Positions 391 to 19,307 of a stretch of 39,006 nucleotides of DNA are shown in pieces; position 1 is the first letter of the stretch, and the number at the start of each line of letters is the position of its first letter. The translations under genes and the position numbers were made by a program. The notes below the pieces were generated by a model that saw only the letters and a program-made list of their open reading frames with translations, did no database searches and was not told where the DNA came from. Source of the DNA: a virus; IMG/VR virus record IMGVR_UViG_3300025659_000312. One strand, 5' to 3'.

Positions 391-474
391 TTAATTTCTC
401 CAGCTTATCATGAGATTTTTGAACTTCCCCGTTTTGATCACATCTCCCACGGAAACATCTATTGTAATTGCCAT
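391..474 (-). other. 27-codon ORF, probably the 5' fragment or exon of a small phage gene interrupted after ...GKFKN
   Basis: MAITIDVSVGDVIKTGKFKN-LMISWRN*. ATG overlaps the upstream stop (TAATG); its last codons contain the endonuclease SD. Resembles, from recollection only, a phage family ..GDTILxG(R/K)FKNKK... Confidence 0.55.
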
Positions 475-1154
475 TATTTTTTCCCCTTTGGTAATAAATC
501 AACTAATTTATTTCCTTTCCATTCTCTACTATCTACTCTACCACCTATTCTATGGTCTACCCATTTTCCCCATAATTTTTCATTTTTAGCAAATATAGAC
601 TGACCACCTTTTTGAACTTGTCTATATCCACTTGCACTTCCCATTTCCTTAGAACCCGGTTCTGGTGTTGGATCGATTCCACCACTTTTAGTTCCCTCTG
701 GAGGTGTAGTTGGTTTAATCAAAGTTTCCGACGTTGAATGGAAGTTTGAGGTTTCTGGTGGAATTGTATATTCTTGTTTTCTATGAAATCCGTGGATTCC
801 ATACATTCTCTGTTTTGGTGCTAATGGTGGAGTGTCGTCTCGTAATTCATTTGCCATTATTGATGCGTATTCTTCTGGACCACTTAAATAACGATATACC
901 ATTGCTTTATCTCGTTCTGCCCGTTTTAAATTATTTAGACTTCCGTTACCACCGTAAATATTGTCCGATGCTGGAAAATCAATTTGTGTCATACCACGAG
1001 TTAAACTTGCAGGTCCCACTACTCGTCTCTCTCCACGTTTAGTGTAAAGACCGTCTGGCCATCCATCTCCAATTTCACCTAAACCTGTACCATGTCCGCC
1101 AGCTGATGACCCTTCATTTATAAGTTTTAACATTTTCGTTTCAAATTTATTCAT
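474..1154 (-). CDS. Hypothetical protein, Gly/Pro-rich, N-terminal LINE-G motif
   Basis: 226 aa ORF coupled to both neighbours; no family recognised. Confidence 0.8.
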   Translation of the reverse strand: MNKFETKMLKLINEGSSAGGHGTGLGEIGDGWPDGLYTKRGERRVVGPASLTRGMTQIDFPASDNIYGGNGSLNNLKRAERDKAMVYRYLSGPEEYASIMANELRDDTPPLAPKQRMYGIHGFHRKQEYTIPPETSNFHSTSETLIKPTTPPEGTKSGGIDPTPEPGSKEMGSASGYRQVQKGGQSIFAKNEKLWGKWVDHRIGGRVDSREWKGNKLVDLLPKGKK

Positions 1155-1724
1155 TCAATCTTCCAATAAGTTAGTCTTCCACCATTCAGGTGATAAATTC
1201 TCTACATGAAGTCGCGGTCTACCTCCACTAAATTTTGGTGATTTCTTTGCGGGGTCTGATGTATTACGTATGTTATCTTCTATACGACCTTCAGCGTCAA
1301 TTCCAGATGCTACAGGTGGACCAGCAAATAATACATTCTTATCATCTACTCCCAACCATTTAATTACACTCCAACCTAAATTTTCTATCACATCACGTAA
1401 TCTGTTTTTATATTTTTTCTTAGCTCCGTATGAAATTGCTGGAACTTCTCTGTAGTCCATAGTATAATCTTCTTCTGGATCCATTGCACCGTCACTTAAA
1501 ATATATCCAATTACCTTATATCCTAAATCATTCTGTAATTGCTTAACCCAGTCTTTGGTTTCTTGTTTATATTGATCCAATGATTTGTAAAATGTTCCTG
1601 GACCGTCATCTACTGGTGCTTTTCTGGTACCTGCACCTTCTTTTATGATAGAAATTATATCATTTTCTACTATAAAATCTCCTATTTTATCACCACTAAA
1701 CTCATTTAAAATCTTTTTATGCAA
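1155..1724 (-). CDS. Hypothetical protein
   Basis: 189 aa, TTG start with GGAGA SD 6 nt upstream; ILNE and IIKE-G motifs near the N-terminus. Confidence 0.8.
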   Translation of the reverse strand: MHKKILNEFSGDKIGDFIVENDIISIIKEGAGTRKAPVDDGPGTFYKSLDQYKQETKDWVKQLQNDLGYKVIGYILSDGAMDPEEDYTMDYREVPAISYGAKKKYKNRLRDVIENLGWSVIKWLGVDDKNVLFAGPPVASGIDAEGRIEDNIRNTSDPAKKSPKFSGGRPRLHVENLSPEWWKTNLLED

Positions 1725-1753
1725 TAATCTTCTCCAAGATATACTTTATCACT

Positions 1754-1762
1754 TATAAATAT
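1754..1762 (-). promoter_or_regulatory. Intergenic ATATTTATA motif (candidate promoter; TATAAATAT on + strand)
   Basis: Same 9-mer in three intergenic gaps (1754, 12145, 20042), about 20-40 nt upstream of a start codon. Confidence 0.4.
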
Positions 1763-1770
1763 CAATTTAC

Positions 1771-2328
1771 TTAACTATTAGACAATTCTTCCTCAACTTC
1801 TATTTTCATTTTGAGTAAATCTTTGAGTGCGTCATCTGCCATTTCTTTTACTTTCTCGTCACTTTGAGTCCATTTCTCTTTCTCTATTTCTACTGACTGG
1901 ACTCCAACTTGATTGTAAAATTCGGGTGTGGTCTGTGTTTTCCAATCTTCTACACTTTCTATTTGTTCGTTTAACCATGAAAGTTTATTTTTCAACACTT
2001 TTTGATTTTCCCAATCTTCAAATGTTCCATCTACCCGAAGTTTATTCTCAAATTTTACTTGACAATCAAAACATTGATTGTATAATCTATACATCTTATC
2101 ATCAAGTTTCAATTTCATTATTTTATCACACTTTGGACAAAACCATGGCATCTTTGCTTCTTGTAATACCTCCATTCTTCCATTTATTCTGTCTCTTTCG
2201 TCTTGTATCTCTTTTTTACGAGCTTTCTTTTCTTTTTTATCTTCCGTGACCACCATTATTCTTTTATTTGGCGTTTCATTTCGTAAAATGGATTCTCTTG
2301 CCTCTACGTGTCTTTGATGTTCTCCCAT
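1771..2328 (-). CDS. Hypothetical protein with CxxC...CxxC zinc-binding motif
   Basis: WFCPKCDKIM...NQCFDCQV within a charged, helical 185 aa ORF. Confidence 0.8.
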   Translation of the reverse strand: MGEHQRHVEARESILRNETPNKRIMVVTEDKKEKKARKKEIQDERDRINGRMEVLQEAKMPWFCPKCDKIMKLKLDDKMYRLYNQCFDCQVKFENKLRVDGTFEDWENQKVLKNKLSWLNEQIESVEDWKTQTTPEFYNQVGVQSVEIEKEKWTQSDEKVKEMADDALKDLLKMKIEVEEELSNS

Positions 2329-2333
2329 AACCG

Positions 2334-3368
2334 TTACCTCAAATGTTTGTTTACTATTTTAACTGCCTCTAAAGCATGTTTTCGTGTTTGCTTTATCATT
2401 TCAAATGACTCTGGCGTTTCTGCTTTCTTAAATTTTGAATTCGATAATTGTTTCTTTGTTTGTTTTGCGTAATTACTTCTAACATTCTTTATGAATTCCT
2501 TTGAGTTTTTCATATTACTCAATCCACCTTTACCAAGAACTCCATTTTGTTCTAATGTCTTTGCCATTCCTATAATTCCAATACAGAAACTTTTTATGGA
2601 TACATTTTCGGTATCTATTCCCTTATACTTAATAAGTAGTGGGTCAATCTTTATTTCTTTAATATTTATTTTTGGGTCGTTTAGTTTAACTAAAAAACGA
2701 GTTGCGTGATACATAAACTTACCAATATCTGTTGAAATTAACTTAAACTCTATTCCTTTTCTATTTCTTGACGTAACTAAAATGTTATTCTTGAATCTTC
2801 CCAAAACCCCCTCTGTTCCAAATGACATTGTTACTGTATTTCCAAGAGCACTATATAAATTTCCAATAGTAAACCCCTTTAATCCATATTGTGGCTTATA
2901 TCTTCCACTCATCCAGTCTGTATATGGTTTGAATGTCAATATCAAATCAACTTGACTATAAACTTCCTCTCCCAAATTGAAAATTACTGAATTTCCTTTG
3001 GTGTGTAATGTATCAGTAATCTCTACGTTTTTTGGAGCCTTTGTTTTTACATAAGTAAGAAAAGTTTCAAGATATTTTCGTCTTATTGCATTTTCCTTCT
3101 TTCTAAAATCTTTTTGGTCTATAACTGAAATTGGTATTTCTACCAACATATCAATATCACCATATATTTTATCAACTTTATGTTTCAAATCATGCTTATA
3201 GTAACTTGTAGATCCAACTGGAGTTAATTTACCAAGTGGTTGTAGTCCACTCGTTTTCAAAAAAACATTAAAATTTTTAACAAACCTCTCAAACTCTTTT
3301 ACTGACGCCTTCACTATCATTGGAGTTAATTTAGTTTTCTGGGTTTTTACTGTTTCCCATCCGCCCAT
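2334..3368 (-). CDS. Pol-beta superfamily nucleotidyltransferase-like protein
   Basis: VGSTS...YGDIDMLV (G[GS]...DxD) plus third acidic residue in SQVDLIL; 344 aa. Confidence 0.65.
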   Translation of the reverse strand: MGGWETVKTQKTKLTPMIVKASVKEFERFVKNFNVFLKTSGLQPLGKLTPVGSTSYYKHDLKHKVDKIYGDIDMLVEIPISVIDQKDFRKKENAIRRKYLETFLTYVKTKAPKNVEITDTLHTKGNSVIFNLGEEVYSQVDLILTFKPYTDWMSGRYKPQYGLKGFTIGNLYSALGNTVTMSFGTEGVLGRFKNNILVTSRNRKGIEFKLISTDIGKFMYHATRFLVKLNDPKINIKEIKIDPLLIKYKGIDTENVSIKSFCIGIIGMAKTLEQNGVLGKGGLSNMKNSKEFIKNVRSNYAKQTKKQLSNSKFKKAETPESFEMIKQTRKHALEAVKIVNKHLR

Positions 3369-3371
3369 TTT

Positions 3372-4268
3372 TTATAACTCCTTTGGAATTGGGAATTTAT
3401 ATCTTGTTAGTGTAGTTTTGTATGCATCAAATATTTTCCTATTCAACTTTTTAAATAAAAAGTCCTTTGACTTCATCAACTTATATAATTTTTCAAATGA
3501 ATCAATATCTTTAAACGTGCGTTTTGATCCGAATAAAAATTTTGCTAACTTATCCATATCCCCAATTACTTTTCTTATTTTTAGTTTAACTCGTTTTCCC
3601 TTTTCGTTTGTGGTAAAATCAACTAACTCTACACCATTTTTCCAATTCATTTGAAATTTTCTCTTAACGTCAGGATCTTTTGTTTTTAATATCGTTTGAG
3701 AAAAAATATCTGCAATTAATAAATTACGATATACTGCTTTGTATTTACTTCTATAATCTGATGCAGAAAGTGCTTTTTTCATGAATTCTAAATCACCAAT
3801 CATAACATCAATCTGAACATATCCAGGATCACCTAAATCATTTCCATCTTTATCTACAGCGTTTAGTTGAGTACCACTTTTATCTACAAGTGGGGTGATG
3901 AAGTGAGCCTGTTTTAATCCCTTATTAATTTTATGATCCTTAATTTTAGTTCTACCTAAAAACTTATCTAACTCTCCCCAAAATTCAGTTGCTTCACCGT
4001 TAAACTTCATAATTTTAGCCATGACTGATACATCTACTGCAATATCAATATCCCCTAAAAATGGTTTTTTATAGTTTCCTATGATTGTGTATTTTAATTT
4101 TTTTAGACCAGCATCTACGAGAGATTTTTTGATTGTAGCATCCAGATGTTCACTTGGGACTACTGAATTTACATCACTAAAAACATTACCACCTTCAAGT
4201 AATAAACGTTTAAAATGTCTCTTTATTTCTTCTCGTATTAATTTTCTTACACTATTTTCCGTTATCAT
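3372..4268 (-). CDS. Second Pol-beta superfamily nucleotidyltransferase-like protein
   Basis: IIGNYKKPFLGDIDIAVD and YVQIDVMIG motifs; leader LIREEI..LLLE-GGNVF. ATG at 4268 preferred over the track's TTG at 4271. Confidence 0.65.
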   Translation of the reverse strand: MITENSVRKLIREEIKRHFKRLLLEGGNVFSDVNSVVPSEHLDATIKKSLVDAGLKKLKYTIIGNYKKPFLGDIDIAVDVSVMAKIMKFNGEATEFWGELDKFLGRTKIKDHKINKGLKQAHFITPLVDKSGTQLNAVDKDGNDLGDPGYVQIDVMIGDLEFMKKALSASDYRSKYKAVYRNLLIADIFSQTILKTKDPDVKRKFQMNWKNGVELVDFTTNEKGKRVKLKIRKVIGDMDKLAKFLFGSKRTFKDIDSFEKLYKLMKSKDFLFKKLNRKIFDAYKTTLTRYKFPIPKEL

Positions 4269-4279
4269 CAATTCTCTCC

Positions 4280-5983
4280 CTAATCTACATTACGGTCTAA
4301 ATACATTTGAGATACAACTTCTGGAGTATTTTTCTTTAATAAGTTTTTCATATTCTTAATTCTATTAATTGTCAATATTATACTTTTTCGTGTATCTTCA
4401 CGTTTCTTTGGAATGGTTACTAATTCATCACCATCACTTTTAAATTCAGCGGCTATTGATTTAACACTTGCTTCAAGTTTAACCAAATAACCTTCAAGTC
4501 CAGTTGGGTCTACCTTAATGCGTTTAACCAACTCTTTTTCTGCGTTCTGTAAATCATTCATGTATTTCCAATTGCGTTCTTTACGAGCAGTAAACTGATT
4601 TTTATCTACTATCTTGACCACATTTCCATCAGGAACATATAATACAAGTCCTTCATCTTCTTCACCAAATGCACGTTGAAAATCTACTTTCAATACTTTA
4701 CCTTTCATCTTTTTACCAATCAAATTTGCTATTCTCTGTATTTGATATTTGATTTTTTTATGGTGTGGTTTTCTTGCTGGGGTATTTAATAAATTTCCAT
4801 ATTTTTCAATCATCTTACTTAACAAAATTTCATAACTTTCTTCAAAATGAACTTGTTTTAAATTTACTTTTGGATTTGAAAAGAATTTAATGGTAGTTTT
4901 CTTATTTGCTTCTTTAGCAAATACATCGTGAAATGCTATTGGAGTTTCTACACCATCAACTATTATTTTAAATAATACTACTATACCATCACCAATTTTT
5001 TCTGGATCATATAATACTATATTGTAATCCCATGATGGTATTGCCTCACATTCAATAGATATGTTTTTAGTATTACCTTCAATGCCAAATTTCTTTGCAT
5101 ATTTATCTACTATTTTCTTATATGGAATTTTCTTTAATAATTTATGATACTTTACGAAATCTTCATAAAAATATAATGAAGGATAATCTTTTTCGTGTTT
5201 AACAGTTTTAGTTTTTGATCCTGAATAAAACCCTCCACCCCTTATTCCAAATTGGAAAAAGTGACCATCTACCTTTTCATTAACTTCAAATTTTGTATTG
5301 TCGGCATTCCACAGTTTTAAGAAGTTTAATAAATCCTTTGGTTTCATATCCTCTATATGTTTAATACCTTCTGTTAAAACTCCCTCTGTGATACCAAATT
5401 TCGTCTTAAAGATACCATATACGGACTTATTAACTTTACCGTATAGAGTTTTAAATGCATCCTTTGGATTATCACCTTTGAATGCATTTCTAACAACAGT
5501 TCCACTAATAGTTTTTCCATCAATTTTCATTTGAAGTTGTGGGACAGTAATTACATATCCTTTTGTTTCAAAACTTTCCATATCTTTACCTGTATATGGG
5601 TTATAATACTTTCCACTTAATCTACCAGCATCCTTTTCACCGAGACCAACTACCAACGCAGTAGTTTTCTCATCAAACTTAGACTTTATCTCTACAGTAT
5701 TATATGGATTTTTAACTTGAATGATGTTAGATTTTGGAACTTTAAACATTTTAGATATTATAGCTTCTTTTTCCTTAAAATCAAATGGTGATTTACCATC
5801 AGTTTTATTTGAAGTTCCTATAAATACATTTTTCTTACCGAATTTTTTAACTAAGAATTCGTATGCGTGATGATGTCCTTTATGATATGGTTGGAATCTA
5901 CCGGAGTATACTGCTATGGTTTTTTTTATTTCACCAGTATCTTCCAATAATTCTTGTATTAACTGTGTTGCTAATTTACTCAT
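4280..5983 (-). CDS. HIGH-class cytidyltransferase-like domain fused to an ATP-dependent (RNA) ligase-like domain
   Basis: N-half YSGRFQPYHKGHHHAY (HIGH-type). C-half NEKVDG (motif I KxDG), DEGLVL (motif IV), VKIVDK (motif V). Confidence 0.7.
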   Translation of the reverse strand: MSKLATQLIQELLEDTGEIKKTIAVYSGRFQPYHKGHHHAYEFLVKKFGKKNVFIGTSNKTDGKSPFDFKEKEAIISKMFKVPKSNIIQVKNPYNTVEIKSKFDEKTTALVVGLGEKDAGRLSGKYYNPYTGKDMESFETKGYVITVPQLQMKIDGKTISGTVVRNAFKGDNPKDAFKTLYGKVNKSVYGIFKTKFGITEGVLTEGIKHIEDMKPKDLLNFLKLWNADNTKFEVNEKVDGHFFQFGIRGGGFYSGSKTKTVKHEKDYPSLYFYEDFVKYHKLLKKIPYKKIVDKYAKKFGIEGNTKNISIECEAIPSWDYNIVLYDPEKIGDGIVVLFKIIVDGVETPIAFHDVFAKEANKKTTIKFFSNPKVNLKQVHFEESYEILLSKMIEKYGNLLNTPARKPHHKKIKYQIQRIANLIGKKMKGKVLKVDFQRAFGEEDEGLVLYVPDGNVVKIVDKNQFTARKERNWKYMNDLQNAEKELVKRIKVDPTGLEGYLVKLEASVKSIAAEFKSDGDELVTIPKKREDTRKSIILTINRIKNMKNLLKKNTPEVVSQMYLDRNVD

Positions 5984-6132
5984 CTTCGTCCACCTTTATC
6001 AAAGTCCTTTGAAAACTTCTGTAATTTACCAAATGCTCTAAACTTTTTCATTTTCTCTTGTTTACTCCATTTCATTTTATCAAATACTTTCATTCTCTCC
6101 GTTAGTGGAAGTAGTGATGACAATTTAATCAT
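5980..6132 (-). CDS. 50 aa basic protein with MIKL leader (absent from ORF track)
   Basis: MIKLSSLLPLTERMKVFDKMKWSKQEKMKKFRAFGKLQKFSKDFDKGGRR*; overlaps both neighbours and fills the gap exactly. Confidence 0.7.
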   Translation of the reverse strand: MIKLSSLLPLTERMKVFDKMKWSKQEKMKKFRAFGKLQKFSKDFDKGGRR

Positions 6133-6649
6133 ATTTTACCAACTGTGACTTCATTTTTATATGTGGATATTTCCGTTTTAATTTCTTTACTGCATTTACA
6201 TTTTTATTGGAATCATCGAAAAATGCTATATCATCGTATCCTTTTTTGATTTGGCCTTCTACCCAATCCGCTTTCTTTTGTGGATTTGCATCTGCAAGTG
6301 CTACTACAAATACATCTCCGTGGCCACTATCCTTAAAAAATTGTCTGACTGGTTTATATTTTGATCTGGCTGTAAGTATAGTTAGACGACGATTTCCAAC
6401 TGCACTATGTATTCTCTTAAATACCTTAAACATACTTTTTATTTTTTTAGGGTCTATTACTTTATCAAATTCTGAAAAATCTATTTCATCACCTGGTTCT
6501 GGTTTATATACTGCGTATAGTCCTGGTGTCATTGTTATTTTCTTTCCATTACGCATTAAATAAACTTTAGAATTAGATTTTACTAGTGTATCATCAAAAT
6601 CAAATACTCGGAGTTTTTTTTCTATTAATAAATCTTTAAGTTTTATCAC
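6125..6649 (-). CDS. HAD-superfamily phosphatase (possibly PNKP 3'-phosphatase or nucleotidase-like)
   Basis: Motif I VFDFDDTL, motif II LTAR, motif III K (PQKKADW), motif IV FFDD; GTG start; MIKLKDLLIE leader. Confidence 0.85.
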   Translation of the reverse strand: MIKLKDLLIEKKLRVFDFDDTLVKSNSKVYLMRNGKKITMTPGLYAVYKPEPGDEIDFSEFDKVIDPKKIKSMFKVFKRIHSAVGNRRLTILTARSKYKPVRQFFKDSGHGDVFVVALADANPQKKADWVEGQIKKGYDDIAFFDDSNKNVNAVKKLKRKYPHIKMKSQLVKYD

Positions 6650-6740
6650 TACCTAATTCCATCACATAATATAGTATTACAAACACCACCGCACTCAATA
6701 ATAAAAAATCAAATTTTGCTACTATGAAATCACTAAACAT
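6636..6740 (-). CDS. 34 aa single-pass membrane micro-protein (absent from ORF track)
   Basis: MFSDFIVAKFDFLLLSAVVFVILYYVMELGSDKT*; TAATG-coupled to the upstream gene. Confidence 0.5.
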   Translation of the reverse strand: MFSDFIVAKFDFLLLSAVVFVILYYVMELGSDKT

Positions 6741-7102
6741 TACTTATCTAGCTTCCAACGTTTATCTGCTATTTTCTTCATACTTTTAAGAATAGTTTCT
6801 AATGCAACTACACTCTGATAATTATGTTTCCAATTTGGTTTAACAAAATCTTTATTTGTCCTGTTGGCCGTATTAAATATTTTATTAGCATGACCAAGAA
6901 CTGTTTTAGCATATATTCTAAATTTTTTAGTTAGTTCTTCCCTTCCACTTTCACTAATAATCTCTCTAATCTTTTTTCGTAATACTCGTTCTTGTAATTC
7001 ATCTTTTGCCATCATCATCTCCCGTTTAGATATTTTAACTTTTTGTTTTCCGATTTCTCTCGGTTTGTCTATGTGAAATTGTGCTATTATTTTATATCCC
7101 AA
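6740..7102 (-). CDS. Hypothetical protein; real start probably an ATG at 7012-7018
   Basis: GGGAG directly precedes ATG ATG ATG GCA; LRKKIREIISE-S leader-like motif. Confidence 0.65.
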   Translation of the reverse strand: MGYKIIAQFHIDKPREIGKQKVKISKREMMMAKDELQERVLRKKIREIISESGREELTKKFRIYAKTVLGHANKIFNTANRTNKDFVKPNWKHNYQSVVALETILKSMKKIADKRWKLDK

Positions 7103-7323
7103 GTTTTAATAGATTTTAAAACATAAGTAAGCGTTCCAACCTCATAATTAAATGCCTTTGCTAATTTATCATTTTTAAGATGTAAAATCATTGAGTATTT
7201 CTTAAATGTTTCTATTGAAGATTTAAGTGTTTTTACTATAGCCATTTTATTTCCAGCACCTGCATATTCATTCAAAAGTTCTTCTCTGATGAGTTCTCTT
7301 AGTTGTGTTTTAGTTATTTTCAT
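7087..7323 (-). CDS. Hypothetical protein with MKITKTQLRELIREELLNE leader
   Basis: 78 aa; SD GGAGA upstream. Confidence 0.8.
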   Translation of the reverse strand: MKITKTQLRELIREELLNEYAGAGNKMAIVKTLKSSIETFKKYSMILHLKNDKLAKAFNYEVGTLTYVLKSIKTWDIK

Positions 7324-7345
7324 TTTATTTCTCCATTAAAGTGTA

Positions 7346-7606
7346 TCACTCAAATTTCATTGGTTCTTGTGCCACTTTGTCTGCAAGTGTACCTATACCA
7401 AAACTGACCTGGGATAAAAGTTCAAGCCAAGAATCCAAATTTTCCTTTCCTTTTATTGAAGATTTTACCTCTTTGATAGCCTTACCCAACATCTTTTCAT
7501 AAACCAGTAAATGTTTTAATAATTCCTTTTTCCTCGTTGGGTCATCCCACCCCTCATTTAACTCTTCCCGAATCATTTCTTTTAATTGTGTTTTAGTTAT
7601 TTTCAT
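7346..7606 (-). CDS. Hypothetical protein with MKITKTQLKEMIREELNE leader
   Basis: ATG 7606 has GGAGG 8 nt upstream, preferred over the track start at 7621. Confidence 0.8.
   Translation of the reverse strand: MKITKTQLKEMIREELNEGWDDPTRKKELLKHLLVYEKMLGKAIKEVKSSIKGKENLDSWLELLSQVSFGIGTLADKVAQEPMKFE
7562..7606 (-). repeat. 45-nt direct repeat, copy 1 (leader-coding)
   Basis: ATGAAAATAACTAAAACACAATTAAAAGAAATGATTCGGGAAGAG; 43/45 identical to 8819-8863. Confidence 0.9.
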
Positions 7607-7610
7607 TCTA

Positions 7611-7892
7611 CTATCCTCCAAACCTACTGTTTTTCCACATCAACTTCTGCAATCTTTCATACTCACGTTGTTGTTCTGGTGATATTTTAATTGTTTTCAA
7701 TGGCCCAAATATTCTTTGTTTTCTACTGTTTTGTTTATAAACATCATCCATCTTCTTTTCATCTTTATCTACTGCAATTACTTTTTTAAGGTTGCTACTT
7801 ACCACTATCCAATATCCAGCCTTTCTCATTTCTTGTGCCTTGTCAATAGTAATGTCTACTTTTTCGTTTAGTAAATCTATTAGTTTAATCAT
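7611..7892 (-). CDS. Hypothetical protein with MIKLIDLLNE leader
   Basis: 93 aa, overlaps the upstream stop. Confidence 0.8.
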   Translation of the reverse strand: MIKLIDLLNEKVDITIDKAQEMRKAGYWIVVSSNLKKVIAVDKDEKKMDDVYKQNSRKQRIFGPLKTIKISPEQQREYERLQKLMWKNSRFGG

Positions 7893-8446
7893 TTTATACC
7901 CATCAACTCTAATTCTTTTTCCCAGAATAATCCGTATACGGCTAATGCATTGACTTTAACTAACACATTCATTGTGTTTCCAACGTGAAATACTTCTTGT
8001 TCATTTCTTTTTAATCCAACTTCTTTTCCAATCTTACCTAACCACTTATAATTACCAACAAAATTATTATCTATTTTAGTAATAATAATTGATTCTGGAT
8101 AATCGGGCTTAGCATTATATTTAGCAAACTTTTGAGCTAAATCAAAATTATATGTAAATGATTGTACTGGTCGTCTTGACCTATACTTCATTTTTAAAAA
8201 CAACCATTTGTCATCTCGTTTAGCTATTTTTAGTTTTTTTAAATCTTTTTTAGATATAGCCGTTCCTCTATACACTTCACCACTAATCGGGTTTAATTCT
8301 TTTGAGTATTTAGATTTTTTTGAATACAAAGATTTAATAGTAGAATCTATTTTAGTAGTTCTTTCACCGCCAGCTTTCATATACTTTTTTAACATTTCTA
8401 TTTCAGTATCTAAGTTTTCTGTCAATAAATATTTTAGTTTGATCAT
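7889..8446 (-). CDS. ADP-ribosyltransferase-like protein (R-S-E class) with MIKLKYLLTE leader
   Basis: VYRGT ... VQSFT...AQKFA ... NEQEVF matches the R, S-x-S/T and E-x-E order of ART-fold toxins. Confidence 0.6.
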   Translation of the reverse strand: MIKLKYLLTENLDTEIEMLKKYMKAGGERTTKIDSTIKSLYSKKSKYSKELNPISGEVYRGTAISKKDLKKLKIAKRDDKWLFLKMKYRSRRPVQSFTYNFDLAQKFAKYNAKPDYPESIIITKIDNNFVGNYKWLGKIGKEVGLKRNEQEVFHVGNTMNVLVKVNALAVYGLFWEKELELMGIK

Positions 8447-8482
8447 AATTTATCTCCTAATAATAAAAAGCTATGTTTAGTT

Positions 8483-8578
8483 TCAGTTCTTACAATATGT
8501 ACGTACTTTTGCCAATTGCCGTTTTGTAATGATATCCGCATCTAATAATAGGTGCCCTAATTTTGCATCACCATTCAC
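8483..8578 (-). CDS. 31 aa ORF with one MshEN-like half motif (possibly truncated)
   Basis: GTG start with AGGAG SD 7 nt upstream; MNGDAKLGHLLLDADIITKRQLAKVRTYCKN*. Confidence 0.5.
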   Translation of the reverse strand: MNGDAKLGHLLLDADIITKRQLAKVRTYCKN

Positions 8579-8593
8579 TTTACTTCTCCTTAT

Positions 8594-8863
8594 TTACCCC
8601 TTTAATAATTCGTGATATAATTTGTCAAGCATAATTTTGGTAAAAGCGTCATATTCACTTAATGCACTTTTAATCAATTTATTTGAAGCACTCGAATATT
8701 CTTTTGATTTGGATTTAGCGAACTTTTTTAATTCCTTACCAAAATCTTCAGCTTTATTTCCAATAGCCAAATACTCATCGTCATCATGTGGATGATAATA
8801 ATCATTCTCATTCAAGAGCTCTTCCCGAATCATTTCTTTTAATTGTGTTTTAGATATTTTCAC
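8594..8863 (-). CDS. Hypothetical protein with MKISKTQLKEMIREELLNE leader
   Basis: 89 aa, GTG start, GGAGA SD. Confidence 0.8.
   Translation of the reverse strand: MKISKTQLKEMIREELLNENDYYHPHDDDEYLAIGNKAEDFGKELKKFAKSKSKEYSSASNKLIKSALSEYDAFTKIMLDKLYHELLKG
8819..8863 (-). repeat. 45-nt direct repeat, copy 2 (leader-coding)
   Basis: GTGAAAATATCTAAAACACAATTAAAAGAAATGATTCGGGAAGAG. Confidence 0.9.
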
Positions 8864-8864
8864 T

Positions 8865-9467
8865 TCATTTCTCCAATGAATTTACAATGTTCATAATGCC
8901 CTTATTTCGTTTTTGGGCTCCATTATGTGTGGATAATCCCTTTTTACCTGCAAAATTCTTTTCCAATGACTTGACTATTTTTGGGTATGCTATTCCACCA
9001 CCACTTTCGGCCCATTTTCTACTTCCCCTTTCTATTAATTTAGAGGCTTTATTTAATTTCATCGTCATTATCTTGGAAGTCTTTTCATGCCAAAATTTAA
9101 CTTCATTATCTTCAATTTGTAATATGACTATTTTACTAATACCATTTAACTCAATCCAATATACAGTTAAGGGGGCAATATACATTGATTCATTTAATGT
9201 ATTTTCTTTAACTAAAATTTTTGATATATACGTTGAAATTCTGAATTTAGTTCCGGCTACAGGGACCAAACCCTTATCTTTAACTTTCTGTGTAATATCA
9301 TATTTACCATTTCCCAATTCTTTAATGAACCAATCACTTTTACCGACTCTACCTTTCCATATTTGTTTTTCTATCATATGTTTAATGGCTCGCTTGTCGG
9401 TAGCGGTAAGGTGTCCGTCTAATACTTTTATCTTTATTTCATTGAGTAGGTCTTTGAGTTTAATCAT
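8865..9467 (-). CDS. Hypothetical protein with MIKLKDLLNE leader and an internal TLNE-S motif
   Basis: 200 aa; may be two fused modules. Confidence 0.8.
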   Translation of the reverse strand: MIKLKDLLNEIKIKVLDGHLTATDKRAIKHMIEKQIWKGRVGKSDWFIKELGNGKYDITQKVKDKGLVPVAGTKFRISTYISKILVKENTLNESMYIAPLTVYWIELNGISKIVILQIEDNEVKFWHEKTSKIMTMKLNKASKLIERGSRKWAESGGGIAYPKIVKSLEKNFAGKKGLSTHNGAQKRNKGIMNIVNSLEK

Positions 9468-9479
9468 AATTTATTCCTA

Positions 9480-10388
9480 TTAAAAGTAGGCGTCACCACC
9501 TCTATCTGAAATCCATTTGTTGATGTCTTTGGGTTCATTTGTTATTTCTATTTTATTGCCAAACATCTTTTTAGCTTTTTCTATTTCTTTTCTTTTTTGT
9601 TTACCTTCAGTTGAATTATAGTCATCTTCAAATACTTCGTCGTCATAGTAATACATATCTTCTATATACCCCAATACATCCACTACCATAATTTTGTCAA
9701 CCACTAATTCGTTCCACCACCAATCACCTGTAAATGGGTGTGGTTCTCCGAAATGTTTATTTAATTGTTTTTGATGTGTCTTTATTACTTTGACAACACC
9801 CTTCTCATATAAATTGAATACTTTTTTCACTCCCCTTTTATCTAACGTATTTCCATCTTTATCTTCTAAGTGACTAAACAGGCCGTGTACATTTCTTTTA
9901 TATTTTAACTTTAACTTGCGTATAATGTCATCAAAAATAAAAGTCATCTTTCCTTTTATTTTATCACCTATTTTACTATCTGATGCTTTATTTAATAAAT
10001 AAGTCAATGACGATGAAAATTGTGGTTCAGTTGATACCCACCTCATTCCAGTTTCATCTGGTCGAGACATTATATCATCGGAAGAAGCTATTTTCAATTT
10101 ACCTATCATATGGACAAGAAACCCACCATCGGTTCTAATTCCACTTAGATTTCCTATATTACTTTGAGAAGTTGTAGTAAATGTTGAAAGTGCCTTTGAT
10201 GTACCTTGAAGTTTTTTTAGATTTACCAATCCTTTAAAATCCGTTACATGAAATGTTGGAATATCTACATCACCTACAATTACATCTACCACTTTTTTTG
10301 ATAATGGAATCATAGTAGAATCCATCATATTTAGTTGAGAGTCTTCCCAAGATATTACTTCATATAATAAATCTTTTAATTTAATCAT
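9480..10388 (-). CDS. Hypothetical protein with MIKLKDLLYE leader, possibly ART-fold
   Basis: 302 aa; FHVTD...LSTFT...WNELVV is weakly ART-like. Confidence 0.75.
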   Translation of the reverse strand: MIKLKDLLYEVISWEDSQLNMMDSTMIPLSKKVVDVIVGDVDIPTFHVTDFKGLVNLKKLQGTSKALSTFTTTSQSNIGNLSGIRTDGGFLVHMIGKLKIASSDDIMSRPDETGMRWVSTEPQFSSSLTYLLNKASDSKIGDKIKGKMTFIFDDIIRKLKLKYKRNVHGLFSHLEDKDGNTLDKRGVKKVFNLYEKGVVKVIKTHQKQLNKHFGEPHPFTGDWWWNELVVDKIMVVDVLGYIEDMYYYDDEVFEDDYNSTEGKQKRKEIEKAKKMFGNKIEITNEPKDINKWISDRGGDAYF

Positions 10389-10391
10389 AAT

Positions 10392-10712
10392 TTATCTCGG
10401 TGGGTTATAATCCCACGGTCCCCAATGTTCGTGTTTTAACATATTTATCATTGTTTCTTCAACTGAATATTTGTGAATCTTTTTACCATTCGCTGGTATT
10501 CCACCTAACTCATAGTATTTCTTTTTATTAAGTATTATTTTTCTATTATTACTGAAATCTAATACCATCCCACCTTTCTCAATCCAACAATGACCGAATG
10601 GTTTGCCATTAGTGGATAGTATCGCAAGACCATGACACAATACTAAATCTTTATCGTGTCCTTTACTAACAAATCTACCGTTAGCTTCGTAGCAATCACC
10701 TTTACCTGCCAC
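10392..10712 (-). CDS. Small transglutaminase- or papain-like Cys-His-Asp protein
   Basis: GDCYEAN ... GHCWIE ... VLDFSN; 106 aa, GTG start. Confidence 0.5.
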   Translation of the reverse strand: MAGKGDCYEANGRFVSKGHDKDLVLCHGLAILSTNGKPFGHCWIEKGGMVLDFSNNRKIILNKKKYYELGGIPANGKKIHKYSVEETMINMLKHEHWGPWDYNPPR

Positions 10713-11488
10713 TATCTCTTCTTCAACATTTTTTGTTTTTCAATCCACTTTTTAGCTTGTCTATTCTTAATAGGTGCCTTTATAAATTTACCAATACCTT
10801 TACCGACCAACATATTAAATTTACTTGTTGCTTGTTTTGTACTTAAATGTTTATTATTGTCAACTAATAGGAAATTGGCATTTCCAAATAACCCCTGGAA
10901 ATAAGCCATATTCTTTTGAACTGAATGCCAATATTTTTCAACAACATGAGCTGGTAATCTTCGTGGTCTTTCTTCATTTCGCTGTTGTGCAATTTCCAAT
11001 GAAGTATTTACAAATACCATGAATGTATCATATCCCAATTTCATTAAATCTTGTCGTTCATTCTTTACATCTTTAAATTTATGACCCGTACCATCAATAA
11101 TAACACCCAATCTACCTTCTGTATAATTTTTTAGTCGTTGTTTACTTAATGCTTTTGTACGAGTTCTCATACCACTGTAATCATCGTATTCTGGGTCAGT
11201 AAGTTGTTTGAATAACTCTTCTGGCATATTGTCAATGTCGACAGTTCCAAAATATTTTTTCATAAATTTTTCTAATTCAGTATCTTGATTAACCATTTTT
11301 AATCCGGTATAGGATACGCTAACTTTTTTGGGTATTCCGAATAATTGAGATGCAACGTAGGTTTTGCCTGAATTGTGGACATTAACTTCTGATTTTCCCA
11401 CATAATAATTATGATTATTATTTATTCGTAAATCATATACATATTTTTTATCATATTTTATTAGCTTAATTGATTTAATTTTCACCAT
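10712..11488 (-). CDS. Split-intein C-part (39 aa) fused to the C-terminal extein of a P-loop kinase (AAA_33 or zeta-toxin-like)
   Basis: MVKIKSIKLIKYDKKYVYDLRINNNHNYYVGKSEVNVHN|SGKT...VIIDGTG...FMVFVNTSLEIAQQRNEERPRRLP. Confidence 0.92.
   Translation of the reverse strand: MVKIKSIKLIKYDKKYVYDLRINNNHNYYVGKSEVNVHNSGKTYVASQLFGIPKKVSVSYTGLKMVNQDTELEKFMKKYFGTVDIDNMPEELFKQLTDPEYDDYSGMRTRTKALSKQRLKNYTEGRLGVIIDGTGHKFKDVKNERQDLMKLGYDTFMVFVNTSLEIAQQRNEERPRRLPAHVVEKYWHSVQKNMAYFQGLFGNANFLLVDNNKHLSTKQATSKFNMLVGKGIGKFIKAPIKNRQAKKWIEKQKMLKKR
11372..11488 (-). mobile_element. IntC of naturally split intein
   Basis: Block F VYDLRINNNHNYYV; block G HN followed by +1 Ser; own ATG with GGAG upstream. Confidence 0.92.
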
Positions 11489-11741
11489 ATTCTCCGTGAT
11501 TTTTAATAAATCTAATATTTTGTTTTTCTGACCAAAATATTTCTTTATTTTTTAATAGTGATTTTATATTTACCATTGATATATGACAATAATCACCATC
11601 CCATTTTTTACGTGAATTAACATAGCTACAGTAACGTCTATTATTAAATTTAAAATTACACCTATCACATTTATATGATATACTTTGACCTGTATGTGGG
11701 TTTCCTGTTTTAGTATAAATTAAATCAGTTGCTAATAACAT
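11475..11741 (-). CDS. 88 aa Cys-rich ORF between the intein halves (possible homing endonuclease remnant)
   Basis: YKCDRCNFKF...YCSY...YCH; overlaps the IntN stop by 10 nt and the IntC start by 14 nt. Confidence 0.55.
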   Translation of the reverse strand: MLLATDLIYTKTGNPHTGQSISYKCDRCNFKFNNRRYCSYVNSRKKWDGDYCHISMVNIKSLLKNKEIFWSEKQNIRFIKNHGEYGEN

Positions 11742-12103
11742 AATACGTCATCACCATCTTTCAAATCCTTTGCCATAATCCAGTTACCATTCGATAGTCT
11801 TATTTCATGATCTAATGTACAAACAACAGTTTCACCAGTTTCCAATTCTATATTTACCATTTCAGTATCAGCATCGTACTTAAAAAGTTCAACTACTTCT
11901 GAAATTTCTGATTTACCTTTTGTGTTCAATGTCCAAACTCTTTCACCTTTAATTACTTCAGATATTTTAGTATATCCAGTTTCAGTTTTTATTAATGTAT
12001 TTTCATCGAAGCAACCTGGACCACCGGCAAGGAATACCGCTTTGAATATGCCTGGATCATTTACTCCCTCGTTTAATTGTATAAGATCTTTTAATTTAAT
12101 CAT
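11732..12103 (-). CDS. N-terminal extein of P-loop kinase (30 aa) fused to split-intein N-part (93 aa)
   Basis: MIKLKDLIQLNEGVNDPGIFKAVFLAGGPG|CFDENTLIKTETG...VCTLDHEI...WIMAKDLKDGDDVLCY*. Confidence 0.92.
   Translation of the reverse strand: MIKLKDLIQLNEGVNDPGIFKAVFLAGGPGCFDENTLIKTETGYTKISEVIKGERVWTLNTKGKSEISEVVELFKYDADTEMVNIELETGETVVCTLDHEIRLSNGNWIMAKDLKDGDDVLCY
11735..12013 (-). mobile_element. IntN of naturally split intein
   Basis: Block A starts with Cys1 (codon 12011-12013); block B TxxH (TLDH). Confidence 0.92.
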
Positions 12104-12144
12104 TGTCCTTGTCCTTATTCATAAAAAATATATTATCCATCAAC

Positions 12145-12153
12145 TATAAATAT
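12145..12153 (-). promoter_or_regulatory. Intergenic ATATTTATA motif (candidate promoter)
   Basis: About 42 nt upstream of the kinase-IntN start, at the boundary of blocks A and B. Confidence 0.4.
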
Positions 12154-12179
12154 AAGAGAATGGAAAAGTTAGATATTAT

Positions 12180-13670
12180 TTAGAATACTTTGACATCGTA
12201 TTTTTTAGAAAACTGGAAGCCGTCCTGTTTAGTATTTACTATTGGATGCCCTTTTATGTTTAGACTTGTGTTTAAAACCATAGGACAACCTGTTTTCTCA
12301 TAAAACTCTTTAATAAGTTTATAATAACCTGGATTATCTTCTTTACTGACTGTTTGAACTCTGGAAGTATTATCCACGTGACATATTGCCGGATACTTAT
12401 CTGGCCACTTACACTTTGCAGTGAATTGCATAAATTGGGATTTACGAACTGGCATATCAAAAATTTCATGAGCATGTTCTTCCAATACTGATGGGGCGAA
12501 TGGTCTAAATTTTTGTCGATGCTTTATAACATTTACTTTATCTTTTATATCATCACCTCTTGGGTCTGCTAATAAACTTCTATTTCCAAGTGCTCGTGGA
12601 CCAAACTCAGCTCGTCCATTTGCCACCCCTACTATGTTTCCTTTAAGTAGTTCATTTAATACTTTTTTAACTGGATATTTTCCATCTATGTTATGTCCTG
12701 TGAATGGAGTCTCCCAATTTATATGTTTTCCATAAACATATGCCGCAGAACCGAGTGATGAACCAGCATCACCAGGATTTGGTAATATCCATAAGTCAGG
12801 ATAGTAATCACGGGCTATAATAGAGTTAGCTACACAATTCAGTGCAACTCCCCCCATATAAACACAATTATTAGTTTCAGGAACAAGTTTTTGAGTGAGA
12901 CTGAATACCTTACGGATTTCTTCTTCGCATATCCATTGGACATTTGCTGCTATATTAAACTTCCAATCATCACTATCATCATCTGGGTAGTATTCTGGAT
13001 TCCAATCTAAACAACCTCTATGTAAATTGTTCTTTAAATCAATCGGTTTATCGGAGTCATTAAAGAAATCTTCACGAATACTATTCTTTAGTTTGTGGTC
13101 TTGTGTTCCCCAACCTGCCATTCCCATTAAGATGTATTCATCTTCTTGTGGTTTTAATCCAAGTCGTTGTGTCATTGCACTATACCAAAGACCAAGTGAG
13201 TTTGGATATTTTAGTGTATATCGCTTCTCAAAATGACTTCCCCACGCATACCAAATACTACACGTCTCAAACTCACCTATTGCATCTATAACTACGATAG
13301 CTGATTCTTCATATGGACTTGTGTAGTATCCCGCCGCAGCGTGAGATTGGTGATGTTGAACATATTCTATTTCTACATTACCAACGTAATCTCGTAGATA
13401 ATAAGAAGGTAAATTTTTACGAGATAAAACCTCTCCATATTGACCTGCTCTTAGTTGTCTTAACTTTTTTAAGTATGGTCTTTCAAAATATACTACCTTG
13501 TCTGGTTTACCACCAAGTCTATAACAATCGGCAAATAATGTGCTATTCAAATCTGAATCATTCTTGATTCCACTATATCTTTCACTGTGACCGGCAAACA
13601 AAATCTCACCGTCTTGTATAAGTGTAACCGCTGCATCATGATTTAATGCATTTATTCCTAATATTTTCAT
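12180..13670 (-). CDS. Carbamoyltransferase (NodU/CmcH/TobZ family)
   Basis: ILGINALNHDAA, HHQSHAAA, VVIDAIGE, MGMAGWG, GGVALNC, PGDAG, EFGPRALGNRS, FRPFAP, HVDNTSRVQTV, LNTSLN. Confidence 0.95.
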   Translation of the reverse strand: MKILGINALNHDAAVTLIQDGEILFAGHSERYSGIKNDSDLNSTLFADCYRLGGKPDKVVYFERPYLKKLRQLRAGQYGEVLSRKNLPSYYLRDYVGNVEIEYVQHHQSHAAAGYYTSPYEESAIVVIDAIGEFETCSIWYAWGSHFEKRYTLKYPNSLGLWYSAMTQRLGLKPQEDEYILMGMAGWGTQDHKLKNSIREDFFNDSDKPIDLKNNLHRGCLDWNPEYYPDDDSDDWKFNIAANVQWICEEEIRKVFSLTQKLVPETNNCVYMGGVALNCVANSIIARDYYPDLWILPNPGDAGSSLGSAAYVYGKHINWETPFTGHNIDGKYPVKKVLNELLKGNIVGVANGRAEFGPRALGNRSLLADPRGDDIKDKVNVIKHRQKFRPFAPSVLEEHAHEIFDMPVRKSQFMQFTAKCKWPDKYPAICHVDNTSRVQTVSKEDNPGYYKLIKEFYEKTGCPMVLNTSLNIKGHPIVNTKQDGFQFSKKYDVKVF

Positions 13671-13771
13671 TTATATATAAACGGGTCTCGTTTTTTTAAT
13701 TCTTTAATTTTTCTTTTAAATTTGATATGTAATTTTAACCTCAAATACAAATTTTTAATCCATTTAATCAT
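13667..13771 (-). CDS. 34 aa basic micro-protein ending KRDPFIYK (absent from ORF track)
   Basis: MIKWIKNLYLRLKLHIKFKRKIKELKKRDPFIYK*; ATGA overlap with the carbamoyltransferase. Confidence 0.7.
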   Translation of the reverse strand: MIKWIKNLYLRLKLHIKFKRKIKELKKRDPFIYK

Positions 13772-13856
13772 AATAACATAACTCCCTTATAAAATCGAAA
13801 TGTGACTTATCAAAAACAGGGCACTTTCTTTCTACATCATATAACCATTTTTTCAT
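13764..13856 (-). CDS. Possible 30 aa micro-protein
   Basis: MKKWLYDVERKCPVFDKSHFDFIRELCYYD*; fills the gap and overlaps the next start. Confidence 0.35.
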   Translation of the reverse strand: MKKWLYDVERKCPVFDKSHFDFIRELCYYD

Positions 13857-13883
13857 TATAACCCTTTTTAATTAAAATAGTTA

Positions 13884-14168
13884 CTATTCCACTTCTGTAT
13901 TGTTTTCATGATACCATGCACCATGATGATTTTGCCTGTTCTGACTAACTTCGCATTCACAGGAATCACACGCGATTAATATTTCGACTTCCATGTATGT
14001 AAGATTCTCACCATCGTCCCTTGCATCGCCACACCTTGGAGTATCTTTTCCTCCACTTGTACTATCCATTCCATTCTCATCGATACATTTATCACAGCAT
14101 AATTCTCCTTTATTTCCTATCCCTGCTTCAGTTACAATACCTTCACTTATTAAATTTTCAAGTGCCAT
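13884..14168 (-). CDS. Small acidic Cys-rich (zinc-binding) protein
   Basis: ATG 14168 with AAGGAG SD; LISE-GIVTE-AG leader-like motif, CCDKC and CDSCEC. Confidence 0.7.
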   Translation of the reverse strand: MALENLISEGIVTEAGIGNKGELCCDKCIDENGMDSTSGGKDTPRCGDARDDGENLTYMEVEILIACDSCECEVSQNRQNHHGAWYHENNTEVE

Positions 14169-14207
14169 TTTTTTCTCCTTTAATTGGTTACGACTCATTA
14201 ATAAATA

Positions 14208-14897
14208 TCATACGTTTGCCCTTTTTAGTAATTTTTTATACTCTTGAGGATTTCTAACTTTATTAATTACATTTTGAGCAATCCCCGAATCATTACTCAA
14301 ACCTATATACTTTAAATAATGTGGAATTAAAGAATGTCCTATAGGTAACATATTGTAATCATCACTCAAATATAAATGATTATATATCGAAGAAAATATA
14401 TCCATTGTTGATGATGTTCCATAAACTGCAGTATCCATAGTTCCTATGCCAAAAAATTCTTCTTCGTAAGTTATCTCTGATGAATAAAGAACCAATTCAT
14501 CAAGTTTATATGTTGAAATTTCTTTAATTAAATTTTTATCATGATAAACATCAGGTCTTGTCATTATTACACAATCATATTTAAAATCATTGTCTAATTC
14601 ATATTGTGTTTTTAATAAATTACCCCTATGAACTAAATAATAATATTTTGGGATATTAAATTTAATTTTATTTTCTATTTCTCTTGATAAAAATTCATAT
14701 CCCTTTGGATTGAATATCTCTAACATCTCATCATTTATATCAGAATTTCCGTGAAATTTATATGGGTAATTATCTTCCTCTCGATTAGTAGTATCCCAAG
14801 TCGATACAAAGAAATCAACATCCCAATATTTATAAATGTGTTTCATAATTTCCCAATATCTCATTTCACCAGATATACACACCGCTATTTTACTCAC
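14208..14897 (-). CDS. Putative GT-A-type glycosyltransferase (paralog of 22123-22818)
   Basis: KIAVCISGEMR...DFFVSTWD...YDCVIMTRPDV. Confidence 0.55.
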   Translation of the reverse strand: MSKIAVCISGEMRYWEIMKHIYKYWDVDFFVSTWDTTNREEDNYPYKFHGNSDINDEMLEIFNPKGYEFLSREIENKIKFNIPKYYYLVHRGNLLKTQYELDNDFKYDCVIMTRPDVYHDKNLIKEISTYKLDELVLYSSEITYEEEFFGIGTMDTAVYGTSSTMDIFSSIYNHLYLSDDYNMLPIGHSLIPHYLKYIGLSNDSGIAQNVINKVRNPQEYKKLLKRANV

Positions 14898-19304: not shown

Positions 19305-19307
19305 TTG

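Follow-up and report, generated by a model that had tools for sequence, protein, structure and literature searches.

A portable ten-residue leader on unrelated proteins as a candidate head-loading and cleavage tag of uncultured marine T4-type phages

Block A of the IMG/VR virus record IMGVR_UViG_3300025659_000312 (474-14198; positions refer to the whole stretch of 39,006 nucleotides that was analysed, hereafter the window) consists of 21 densely packed minus-strand genes, several of which encode proteins that start with the short leader M-I-K-L-K-D-L-L-x-E. By analogy with phage T4, this tag is likely to be a removable head-loading and cleavage tag of the T4 type, used by an uncultured marine T4-type lineage, and a second leader of block A, MK(I/L)(T/S)K(T/S)QLKE(M/I)IREE..(L/I)NE, would probably do the same job. 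On this analogy, the most likely T4 counterparts of both leaders are the capsid-targeting sequence (CTS) and the short gp24 and Alt propeptides. Among the parts of this reading, cleavage has the strongest support, followed by targeting and then by ejection. Indeed, there is good reason to regard the tag as a protease cut site, a role as capsid targeting signal is favoured with some reserve, and the chances that the tagged proteins are ejected into the host are about even.

The following mechanism is proposed. Late in infection, the tag would dock a protein on the prohead scaffolding core via its hydrophobic residues 4, 7, and 8. Upon closure of the shell, a gp21-type (S77) prohead protease would cut after Glu10, with a hydrophobic residue at P3, and the same protease would also cut hydrophobic-x-Glu linkers within multi-module proteins. 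The tag peptide would then depart, and the mature proteins would be retained beside the DNA inside the head and accompany it into the next host. Docking to the scaffold, packaging, cleavage, and ejection are steps that we infer. Four independent lines of evidence connect the tag with head maturation of the T4 type, namely linkage to the protease, swapping of leaders, sites at fusion junctions, and an ADP-ribosyltransferase (ART) cargo that parallels T4 Alt.

Form of the leader and selection on the peptide

All genes of the window lie on the minus strand, at a G+C content of about 30%, and the coordinates of the first-pass annotation, used below for the leaders, are the start codons of these genes. 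Family 1, M-I-K-L-x-x-L-L-x-E, was found at starts 6649 (GTG), 7892, 8446, 9467, and 10388, and in 12-residue versions at starts 12103 and 6132 (Table 1). Family 2, MKI(T/S)KTQL(K/R)E(M/L)IREE(L)LNE, was found at starts 7323, 7606, and 8863 (GTG); its leaders share L8 and E10 with family 1 and contain a second site at residues 16-19. Looser leaders ended in hydrophobic-x-Glu at residue 14 (start 1154), 8 (start 1724), 13 and 25 (start 4268), 11 and 14 (start 5983), 10 (start 7018), and 9 (start 14168). The first-pass annotation had named seven MIKL-type starts, three MKI(T/S)KTQL-type starts, and these six related N-termini, all of which read as claimed; at start 6132, the MIKL-like leader was indeed present, but 5980-6132 is a remnant rather than a separate gene. 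The two families that it had distinguished are both real as sequences, but, judging from their shared positions, they are better seen as dialects of one scheme.

Block B (Table 1) provided an internal negative control. A hydrophobic-x-Glu element ending at residue 8-14 occurred in 16 of the 21 genes of block A versus one of the 29 genes of block B (Fisher p = 6e-8), and it ended exactly at residue 10 in nine of those of block A. Similarly, a position matrix, for which all training leaders came from outside the window, scored above 5 in seven block-A genes (above 20 in five of these) and below -19 in all 29 genes of block B; just 0.002% of the internal 10-mers of a related complete genome scored above 10. 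This agrees with the statement of the first-pass annotation that leaders are nearly absent from block B, and the matrix separated seven genes of block A from all of block B.

A degenerate DNA pattern for the tag matched at least 117 stretches in IMG/VR. The matches listed, together with the window and one complete relative, yielded 188 distinct tagged open reading frames (ORFs), the bodies of which fell into 82 clusters without detectable mutual similarity; the bodies of family 2 showed no mutual similarity either (blastp, E up to 10). A control set on form, for which MIKL alone was required and the matches to the search pattern were left out, contained 140 ORFs. These had K5 in 76%, D/E/N6 in 74%, a hydrophobic residue (L/I/V/M) at position 7 in 97% and at position 8 in 94%, and E10 in 78%, and conservation was zero from residue 11 onward. 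Position 4 was fixed by the searches (L/I/M or L), so that its 98% L was imposed, and position 7 was free. The Leu codons of the leaders comprised TTA, CTA, CTT, CTC, and TTG, and codons 3 and 5 were nearly always AAA. Since Leu codons vary and DNA identity is restricted to the leader, selection acts on the peptide, and the leader is a discrete 10-residue unit selected at the protein level. Unrelated bodies, varying Leu codons, and selection on the peptide had all been proposed before; the 82 clusters, the conserved residues behind varying synonymous codons, and the sharp end at residue 10 bear them out.

Two other explanations of a common N-terminus were rejected. A paralogous N-terminal domain is not compatible with unrelated bodies and with conservation confined to the first ten residues. 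A Sec, Tat, or lipoprotein signal peptide was rejected by inspection, as the leader has only 10 residues, with charged and hydrophobic ones alternating (K3, K5, D6, E10). Signal peptides have an uninterrupted hydrophobic core of about 7-15 residues following a basic N-region. Furthermore, in a 296-kb IMG/VR contig (L041), a record of jumbo size, one tagged family has expanded to nine paralogues (1483-10900), in which the MIKL tag precedes another conserved stretch, ..P.IF(V/I)PR(R/K).EDR...

The A/T-rich leader, with AAA nearly constant at codons 3 and 5, might alternatively be a translation-initiation feature, consisting of unstructured 5' codons with an early AAA. This is hardly credible, as a G+C content of about 30% is genome-wide, the Leu codons include CTC, CTT, and CTA, conservation of Glu10 and of the hydrophobic positions 7 and 8 is at the residue level, internal junctions distant from start codons show this element too, and the block B genes on the same strand have no leader.

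At the DNA level, the seven family-1 genes were 81% identical over nucleotides 1-15, 56% over nucleotides 16-30, and 25-40% elsewhere, including upstream. The genes with starts 7606 and 8863 were identical in 43 of their first 45 nucleotides, including a rare Arg codon CGG, and fell to background level past the leader. Copying of leader DNA thus occurs and is read as a consequence of the shared tag rather than as its purpose. The opposite, namely that the leaders are DNA-level recombination handles for cassette swapping and that the peptide has no role, is very unlikely. It would account for the near-identity of these two leaders in front of unrelated bodies, for the 30 of 30 nucleotides shared by T4 ipII and ipIII, and for the in-frame fusions at leader positions, but synonymous codons vary freely where residues are 76-99% conserved, the leader is kept in homologues at 25-30% identity, and dialects that differ in both DNA and sequence all end in hydrophobic-x-Glu.

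Protease linkage, leader swapping, and fusion junctions

A first line of evidence for a head-loading tag concerns the head module of relatives. PF03420, the gp21 prohead protease family (S77), was retrieved from three of five large tag-bearing records (G003, G004, and G005). One of these, G004 (168.8 kb, 95%-complete), was analysed whole. In its head module, TerL and portal are followed by the protease gene (125664-126335), by three tagged genes (128177, 128420, and 128713), and by a gene whose product starts MAKLKNILQE; next come the gene of an acidic scaffold-like protein and then that of the major capsid protein. Elsewhere in G004, tags were present on two enzymes, a P-loop kinase and one of the PolyA_pol family, on a homologue of the window's 302-aa protein (9480..10388), and on small proteins, but not on replication, tail, or capsid genes. 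Hydrophobic-x-Glu sites were found in the capsid and scaffold-like precursors of a relative. The last protein of block A (474..1154) retrieved 48 relatives from metagenomes. The syntenic relatives of the window were 70-86% identical to it, and block A was syntenic in six of them (L137, L151, L164, L167, L170, and L174), in all of which the homologue of 474..1154 lay about 1.3 kb upstream of TerL, followed by portal. Past the portal gene, L151, L164, L170, and L174 contained a conserved gene, a MIKL-tagged gene of 112-115 aa, and a gp21-type protease, 66-68% identical to that of G004; L137 stops inside the portal gene and L167 right after the MIKL-tagged gene. From the continuation of block A into TerL and portal in the relatives, the head module is almost certain to start immediately past the left edge of the window. 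The gp21-like protease and the L-x-E sites in capsid and scaffold precursors, which the first-pass annotation had suggested looking for, are thus present in relatives, with the protease gene adjoining MIKL-tagged genes. The motif was absent from the glycan block and from the replication and tail genes of G004. All computational checks that the first-pass annotation had suggested thus favoured its reading.

A second line of evidence comes from homologous cargo. To avoid leader bias, the 302-aa protein without its first 12 residues was compared with 1.84 billion representatives, which resulted in 326 homologue clusters and 130 full-length representatives. MIKL-type leaders occurred on 22 of the 130, T4-CTS-type leaders (M-x-x-F/Y-K-x-F/Y/H-L/I/V/M/F-x-E) on 29, two of which read MKTYKQFIAE, and a third type, MKI.ITESQ...L.E, on 13; the remainder were further variants. 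Hydrophobic-x-Glu occupied exactly residues 8-10 in 61 of the 130 and lay within the first 25 residues in 120, and all leader types ended directly before the conserved start of the body. Hence, one homologous cargo family carries MIKL-type or T4-type leaders by lineage in front of the same body start, which lends indirect support to common descent with the T4 CTS, ten residues being too short for a homology test. A leaderless search with the 185-aa protein (7889..8446) retrieved mostly MIKL-tagged homologues, two having other leaders. For the 302-aa protein and a homologue with a T4-type leader (P0121), neither tblastn against cultured phages nor scans of IMG/VR for relatives gave a match. Because leaders swap on homologous cargo, the comparison suggests that tag dialects co-evolve with the head-assembly machinery of each lineage.

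Thirdly, tagged bodies recur within longer proteins. In 44 non-redundant cases (21 families), a body tagged elsewhere was embedded in a longer protein, and in 23 of these junctions (14 families) hydrophobic-x-Glu was present at the position of tag residues 8-10, against a background of 2.0% within these proteins (P ~1e-27); the motif (K)ES(V/I)(N/D)E was recurrent. The junctions thus keep the protease-type element, which argues for cleavage. For example, in 8865..9467 the internal junction reads KILVKENTLNE and is followed by SMYIAPL; in L137, the C-terminal module of this protein is a separate gene with a MIKL-type leader followed by SKMYIAPL, and in P0002 a body of the 302-aa family is joined to the N-terminal module at this very junction. 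Similarly, a polyprotein of G004 contains the module of 1155..1724 directly behind KEIDE-F, the window counterpart being ..ILNE-F. Homologues of 4280..5983 (G004 g115790, P0012, P0039, P0099, P0129, and P0149) are polyproteins of 1000-1900 aa, with other cargo modules behind hydrophobic-x-Glu junctions, and the 302-aa domain is also found inside proteins of 1200-1900 aa that begin with an NMNAT-like domain.

As hydrophobic-x-Glu is the best-conserved element common to leaders and internal junctions, and as the sequences upstream of it differ widely between lineages, the leader might be a propeptide only, i.e., a cut site or an inhibitory cap without targeting, any incorporation into the head proceeding via other parts of the protein. 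This is quite improbable: on 82 unrelated bodies, conservation is as strong at residues 2-7 (I, K, L, K, D, L) as at 8 and 10, which would be superfluous in a bare cut site, and the same ten residues of T4 serve both targeting and processing (PMC9026906).

Tagged genes of block A and their surroundings

A fourth line of evidence for the head-loading tag is the nature of one cargo protein. Across 12 homologues of 7889..8446, the motifs YRG, QSFT, and NE.E were invariant. Its AlphaFold2 (AF2) model had a predicted local distance difference test (pLDDT) value of 88.8, with residues 1-9 below 50. The top match of this model in Foldseek was the Vis ADP-ribosyltransferase (4xzj; E 2e-3, prob 1.00, TM 0.41-0.47), followed by the TreX, cholera A1, PltA, and Arr folds. 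The protein is therefore predicted to have an R-S-ExE ADP-ribosyltransferase fold, a membership that rests on motifs and modelled fold, as no Pfam match was found. In the 302-aa family, which is the commonest tagged one, H47, D105, D111, W117, and E227 were invariant and S68 nearly so. The AF2 model of 9480..10388 (pLDDT 85.9, leader 58) showed weak ART-superfamily fold matches (Tpt1, Z 6.1; DarT1, 4.7; CteC, 4.7). As no Foldseek match was below 1e-3 and the VIA matches were under the level that proves a fold, this protein is not called an ART or Tpt1. In both models, the leader was the unpacked part of lowest confidence.

Table 1. Leaders, tagged genes, and control block of the window
Feature	Coordinates	Leader or extension	Strand	Description
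226-aa protein	474..1154	1113-1154	(-)	14 residues ending LINE; last block-A gene before the head module of relatives
189-aa protein	1155..1724	1701-1724	(-)	Short leader MHKKILNE
298-aa protein	3372..4268	4194-4268	(-)	Family-2-like, ..SVRKLIREEI..LLLE
567-aa NMNAT/cytidylyltransferase-like + KxDG fusion	4280..5983	5942-5983	(-)	PF01467 (1.6e-6); KxDG at residue 237; 14-residue N-terminal extension ending LLE
50-codon remnant	5980..6132	6097-6132	(-)	Family-1-like, 12 residues, MIKLSSLLPLTE
HAD-type phosphatase-like cargo	6125..6649	6620-6649	(-)	GTG start; MIKLKDLLIE, then FDFDDT (DxDxT-type motif)
~92-aa protein	6740..7018		(-)	Family-2-like MMMAKDELQE..IREIISE if the putative start, ATG 7010-7018, is used
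78-aa protein	7087..7323	7267-7323	(-)	Family 2, MKITKTQLRELIREELLNE; body unlike those of the other two family-2 proteins
86-aa protein	7346..7606	7553-7606	(-)	Family 2, MKITKTQLKEMIREELNE
93-aa family-1 cargo	7611..7892	7863-7892	(-)	MIKLIDLLNE; matrix score 23.8
185-aa cargo, predicted ADP-ribosyltransferase fold	7889..8446	8417-8446	(-)	MIKLKYLLTE
89-aa protein	8594..8863	8807-8863	(-)	GTG start; family 2, MKISKTQLKEMIREELLNE
200-aa two-module protein	8865..9467	9438-9467	(-)	Family 1; internal leader-like junction, residues 83-93 (9189-9221)
302-aa cargo	9480..10388	10359-10388	(-)	MIKLKDLLYE; commonest tagged family
P-loop kinase, C-terminal piece	10712..11488		(-)	Intein C-part and AAA_33 body; no own leader
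P-loop kinase, N-terminal piece	11732..12103	12068-12103	(-)	12 residues, MIKLKDLIQLNE, then GVNDPGIF..GGPG; followed by intein N-part
94-aa Cys-rich protein	13884..14168	14142-14168	(-)	MALENLISE, 9 residues; weakest member
Block B, internal negative control	12180..38960 except small gene 13884-14168		(-)	29 glycan-synthesis genes

Other tagged genes of block A are summarized in Table 1. The HAD-type cargo (6125..6649) matched phrog_415 (E 1.9e-8) and had a matrix score of 27.9. The 567-aa fusion contains an internal double site, GITE-GVLTE-G, at residues 196-206 (5366-5398). Most small cargo proteins had no match in Pfam and PHROGs; for the 93-aa cargo (7611..7892), there was none in Pfam, and 3372..4268 had no family match. 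The remnant at 5980-6132 has full-length relatives (L167, L170, L174, and G004) of 528-586 aa, tagged MI(K/S)L..LLPL(N/H)E and homologous to G004 g37219 of the PolyA_pol family (PF01743, 3e-30). On this comparison, a gene of the CCA-adding/poly(A)-polymerase family is represented here by its N-terminal stump, the remainder having seemingly been deleted in this phage. In the tagged kinase (10712-12103), intein pieces split the Walker A motif, and an 88-aa Cys-rich ORF (11475-11741) sits between the two kinase pieces. The N-terminal piece gave Intein_splicing and Hint matches, and the C-terminal piece matched PF13671 (AAA_33) at 1.9e-6 and Intein_splicing over residues 2-39. Intact kinase homologues, in G004 and at other loci, have a MIKL-type leader followed by GV.D.GI.

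The leader might also be a functional peptide unrelated to the capsid, either a docking helix for another hub, such as a complex of RNA or NAD enzymes, or an N-terminal degron or timing signal for a cytoplasmic protease of the host or the phage. Many of the cargo proteins are indeed metabolic or nucleic-acid enzymes, several are fused together in relatives, as partners in a complex often are, and presence in the virion is deduced by analogy. Nevertheless, such a peptide is unlikely, as the tag fits the T4 scheme at positions 4, 7, 8, and 10, a leader of the T4-CTS type is found on homologous cargo elsewhere, tagged genes lie within the head module, adjoining the protease, and the junctions retain only the protease-type hydrophobic-x-Glu.

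Several further observations concern the head region and the lineage. A GIY-YIG homing-endonuclease gene is situated at the left end of the window (3-389), where the relatives have small genes toward TerL; the head module of T4 likewise contains a GIY-YIG gene (segD). Some head genes of relatives are enlarged or split, as in L137 (8399-17039; TerL of 736 + 243 + 397 aa, portal of 1510 aa) and G003 (67244-78749; TerL of 1004 aa, portal of 1059 aa, protease of 577 aa with the S77 match in two pieces), which suggests that several head genes contain inteins or other insertions. G003 also contains at least nine small tandem paralogues (83972-87626, L136) starting MK(I/T)R.(G/K/N)FVSNSS(S/T)SS; this array sits between the protease and the scaffold-like gene, and its repeated N-terminal motif is distinct from the tag.

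A megablast search with 14.5 kb of the window gave no match to cultured phages. By capsid protein, Microcystis phage Mel-JY01, Flavobacterium phage immuto, and Rhodothermus phage RM378 were nearest. The cultured phage immuto (NC_055915; L131) has two leader dialects of its own (101829-125468): MKKS(Q/E)L..(I/L)I(K/R).E(L) opens four or more genes, including one located between those of portal and protease, and ME(N).F(D/N)L(K/R)(K/S)FL(V/T)ENKLT opens four. As to the host of the lineage, the alternatives are SAR11-like bacteria or Bacteroidota. A homologue of 7889-8446 (P0164) was deposited under a metagenome bin named 'Candidatus Pelagibacter sp.', and Pelagibacter phage HTVC008M contains homologues of the kinase and of the NMNAT-like protein, its kinase starting MIPFILKE-G.

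Weight of the evidence and comparison with known systems

Several points weigh against a T4-type head-loading tag. Ten residues are too few for proving homology with the T4 CTS, and part of the leader set was gathered by a pattern that requires the motif, although the set based on MIKL only and the leaderless searches counter this bias. The window contains no head genes, and the link to the protease therefore rests on relatives, in which the putative scaffold-like protein, without a match in Pfam and PHROGs, is identified by its position and acidic composition. Scans for the T4 late-promoter motif TATAAATA, sigma-70 promoters, and terminators gave chance levels only and are uninformative on the timing of expression, so that a late-promoter signal for block A was not demonstrable. 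Also, the kinase, phosphatase, and NMNAT-like cargo proteins are of enzyme types that are ordinarily cytoplasmic after expression. Finally, the literature yielded no paper on the tag sequence or on CTS-like tags in marine T4-type phages, and no virion proteome, N-terminal sequence, or cleavage assay for any tag-bearing phage. The first-pass annotation had described block A as a catalogue of head-packaged, protease-matured proteins that are ejected into the host; selection on the peptide and linkage to the protease support this description in part, leader swapping and the fusion junctions lend it new support, and its core claims stay among those that we infer.

A more far-reaching reading, held tentatively and at slightly less than even likelihood, is that a widespread clade of uncultured marine T4-type phages pre-loads its capsid with a large, fast-shuffled set of enzymes by means of a portable 10-residue tag and cut linkers in polyproteins. 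Their delivery along with the genome would allow RNA/NAD repair and host takeover to begin ahead of phage gene expression. Besides ADP-ribosyltransferases, this set may comprise a Nudix-like protein, a kinase and a phosphatase, as well as NMNAT/ligase-like and CCA-adding-like enzymes, and the whole may represent a capsid-based effector-injection system with interchangeable cargo. If the tag functions as the CTS of T4 does, it would mark the capsid-travelling proteins of thousands of uncultured ocean phages from sequence alone, and what phages inject besides DNA would become readable from genomes. The cargo, mostly enzymatic and partly made as polyproteins, would far exceed the few small internal proteins of T4 and would point to pre-packaged counter-defence or RNA/NAD repair, and foreign proteins could be introduced into non-model phages by way of this ready-made tag.

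The CTS of T4 is MKTYQEFIAE (PMC8442874). It represents residues 1-10 of IPIII, in which targeting depends most on 4 and 7 (Y4 and F7) and processing on 8 and 10; gp21 cuts after L/I-x-E, and it has been proposed that the CTS may be a general means for T4-like phages to load varied proteins (PMC9026906). The tag of the window resembles the CTS in that it comprises exactly ten N-terminal residues on otherwise unrelated proteins; in both, positions 4, 7, and 8 are hydrophobic, position 6 is acidic, and position 10 is Glu. In both systems, leader DNA has been copied, as in the T4 record ipII and ipIII have unrelated bodies and the identical leader mentioned above, comparable to those at 7606 and 8863, and an S77 protease is encoded, in the tag lineage by relatives. 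Moreover, homologues of the 302-aa cargo bear near-T4 leaders, such as MKTYKQFIAE. In sequence, however, the window tag differs from the CTS (I2, K3, L4, K5, L7, and L8). In T4, the CTS is found on three small basic proteins, whereas the tag described here occurs on no fewer than 82 families of bodies, among them polyprotein modules and enzymes of 170-570 aa, and the function of the CTS has been shown experimentally, whereas that of the window tag is deduced.

Other T4 head proteins offer parallels too. In the T4 record, gp24 starts MAKINELLRE, and gp22, gp67, and gp68 are rich in L/I-x-E sites. The gp24 propeptide shares M1, K3, L7, L8, and E10 with the tag, with I/L at 4 and E/D at 6, and head-module genes of the relatives start MAKL(T/K)(K/N)(L/I)(I/L)(S/Q)E, similar to this propeptide; gp24 is, however, a shell protein, and the tagged proteins are not capsid homologues. 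T4 Alt is a packaged ADP-ribosyltransferase that loses a propeptide of seven residues (PMC9026906), cut by gp21, and is in this respect like 7889-8446, although the latter is 185 aa long and showed no similarity to Alt in sequence.

The internal proteins of T-even phages form a diverse set, of which the CTS is the sole common part, and have been interpreted as injected anti-defence proteins (PMC3012670). Block A resembles their loci in that hypervariable, unrelated proteins are united by the leader alone, and differs from them in belonging to another lineage with a much larger repertoire, in which enzymes dominate and polyproteins contain internal cut-type linkers. In the giant phages phiKZ, 201phi2-1, and SPN3US, a diverged homologue of gp21 likewise cuts many head-internal proteins, some of them large and multi-fragment, on the C-terminal side of Glu (PMC9026906, PMC10052503). 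Unlike the tag-bearing phages, these phages have no short, uniform, portable N-terminal tag, and the P3 residue of their cut sites is small (S/A/G; cut after S/A-x-E), whereas it is hydrophobic here.

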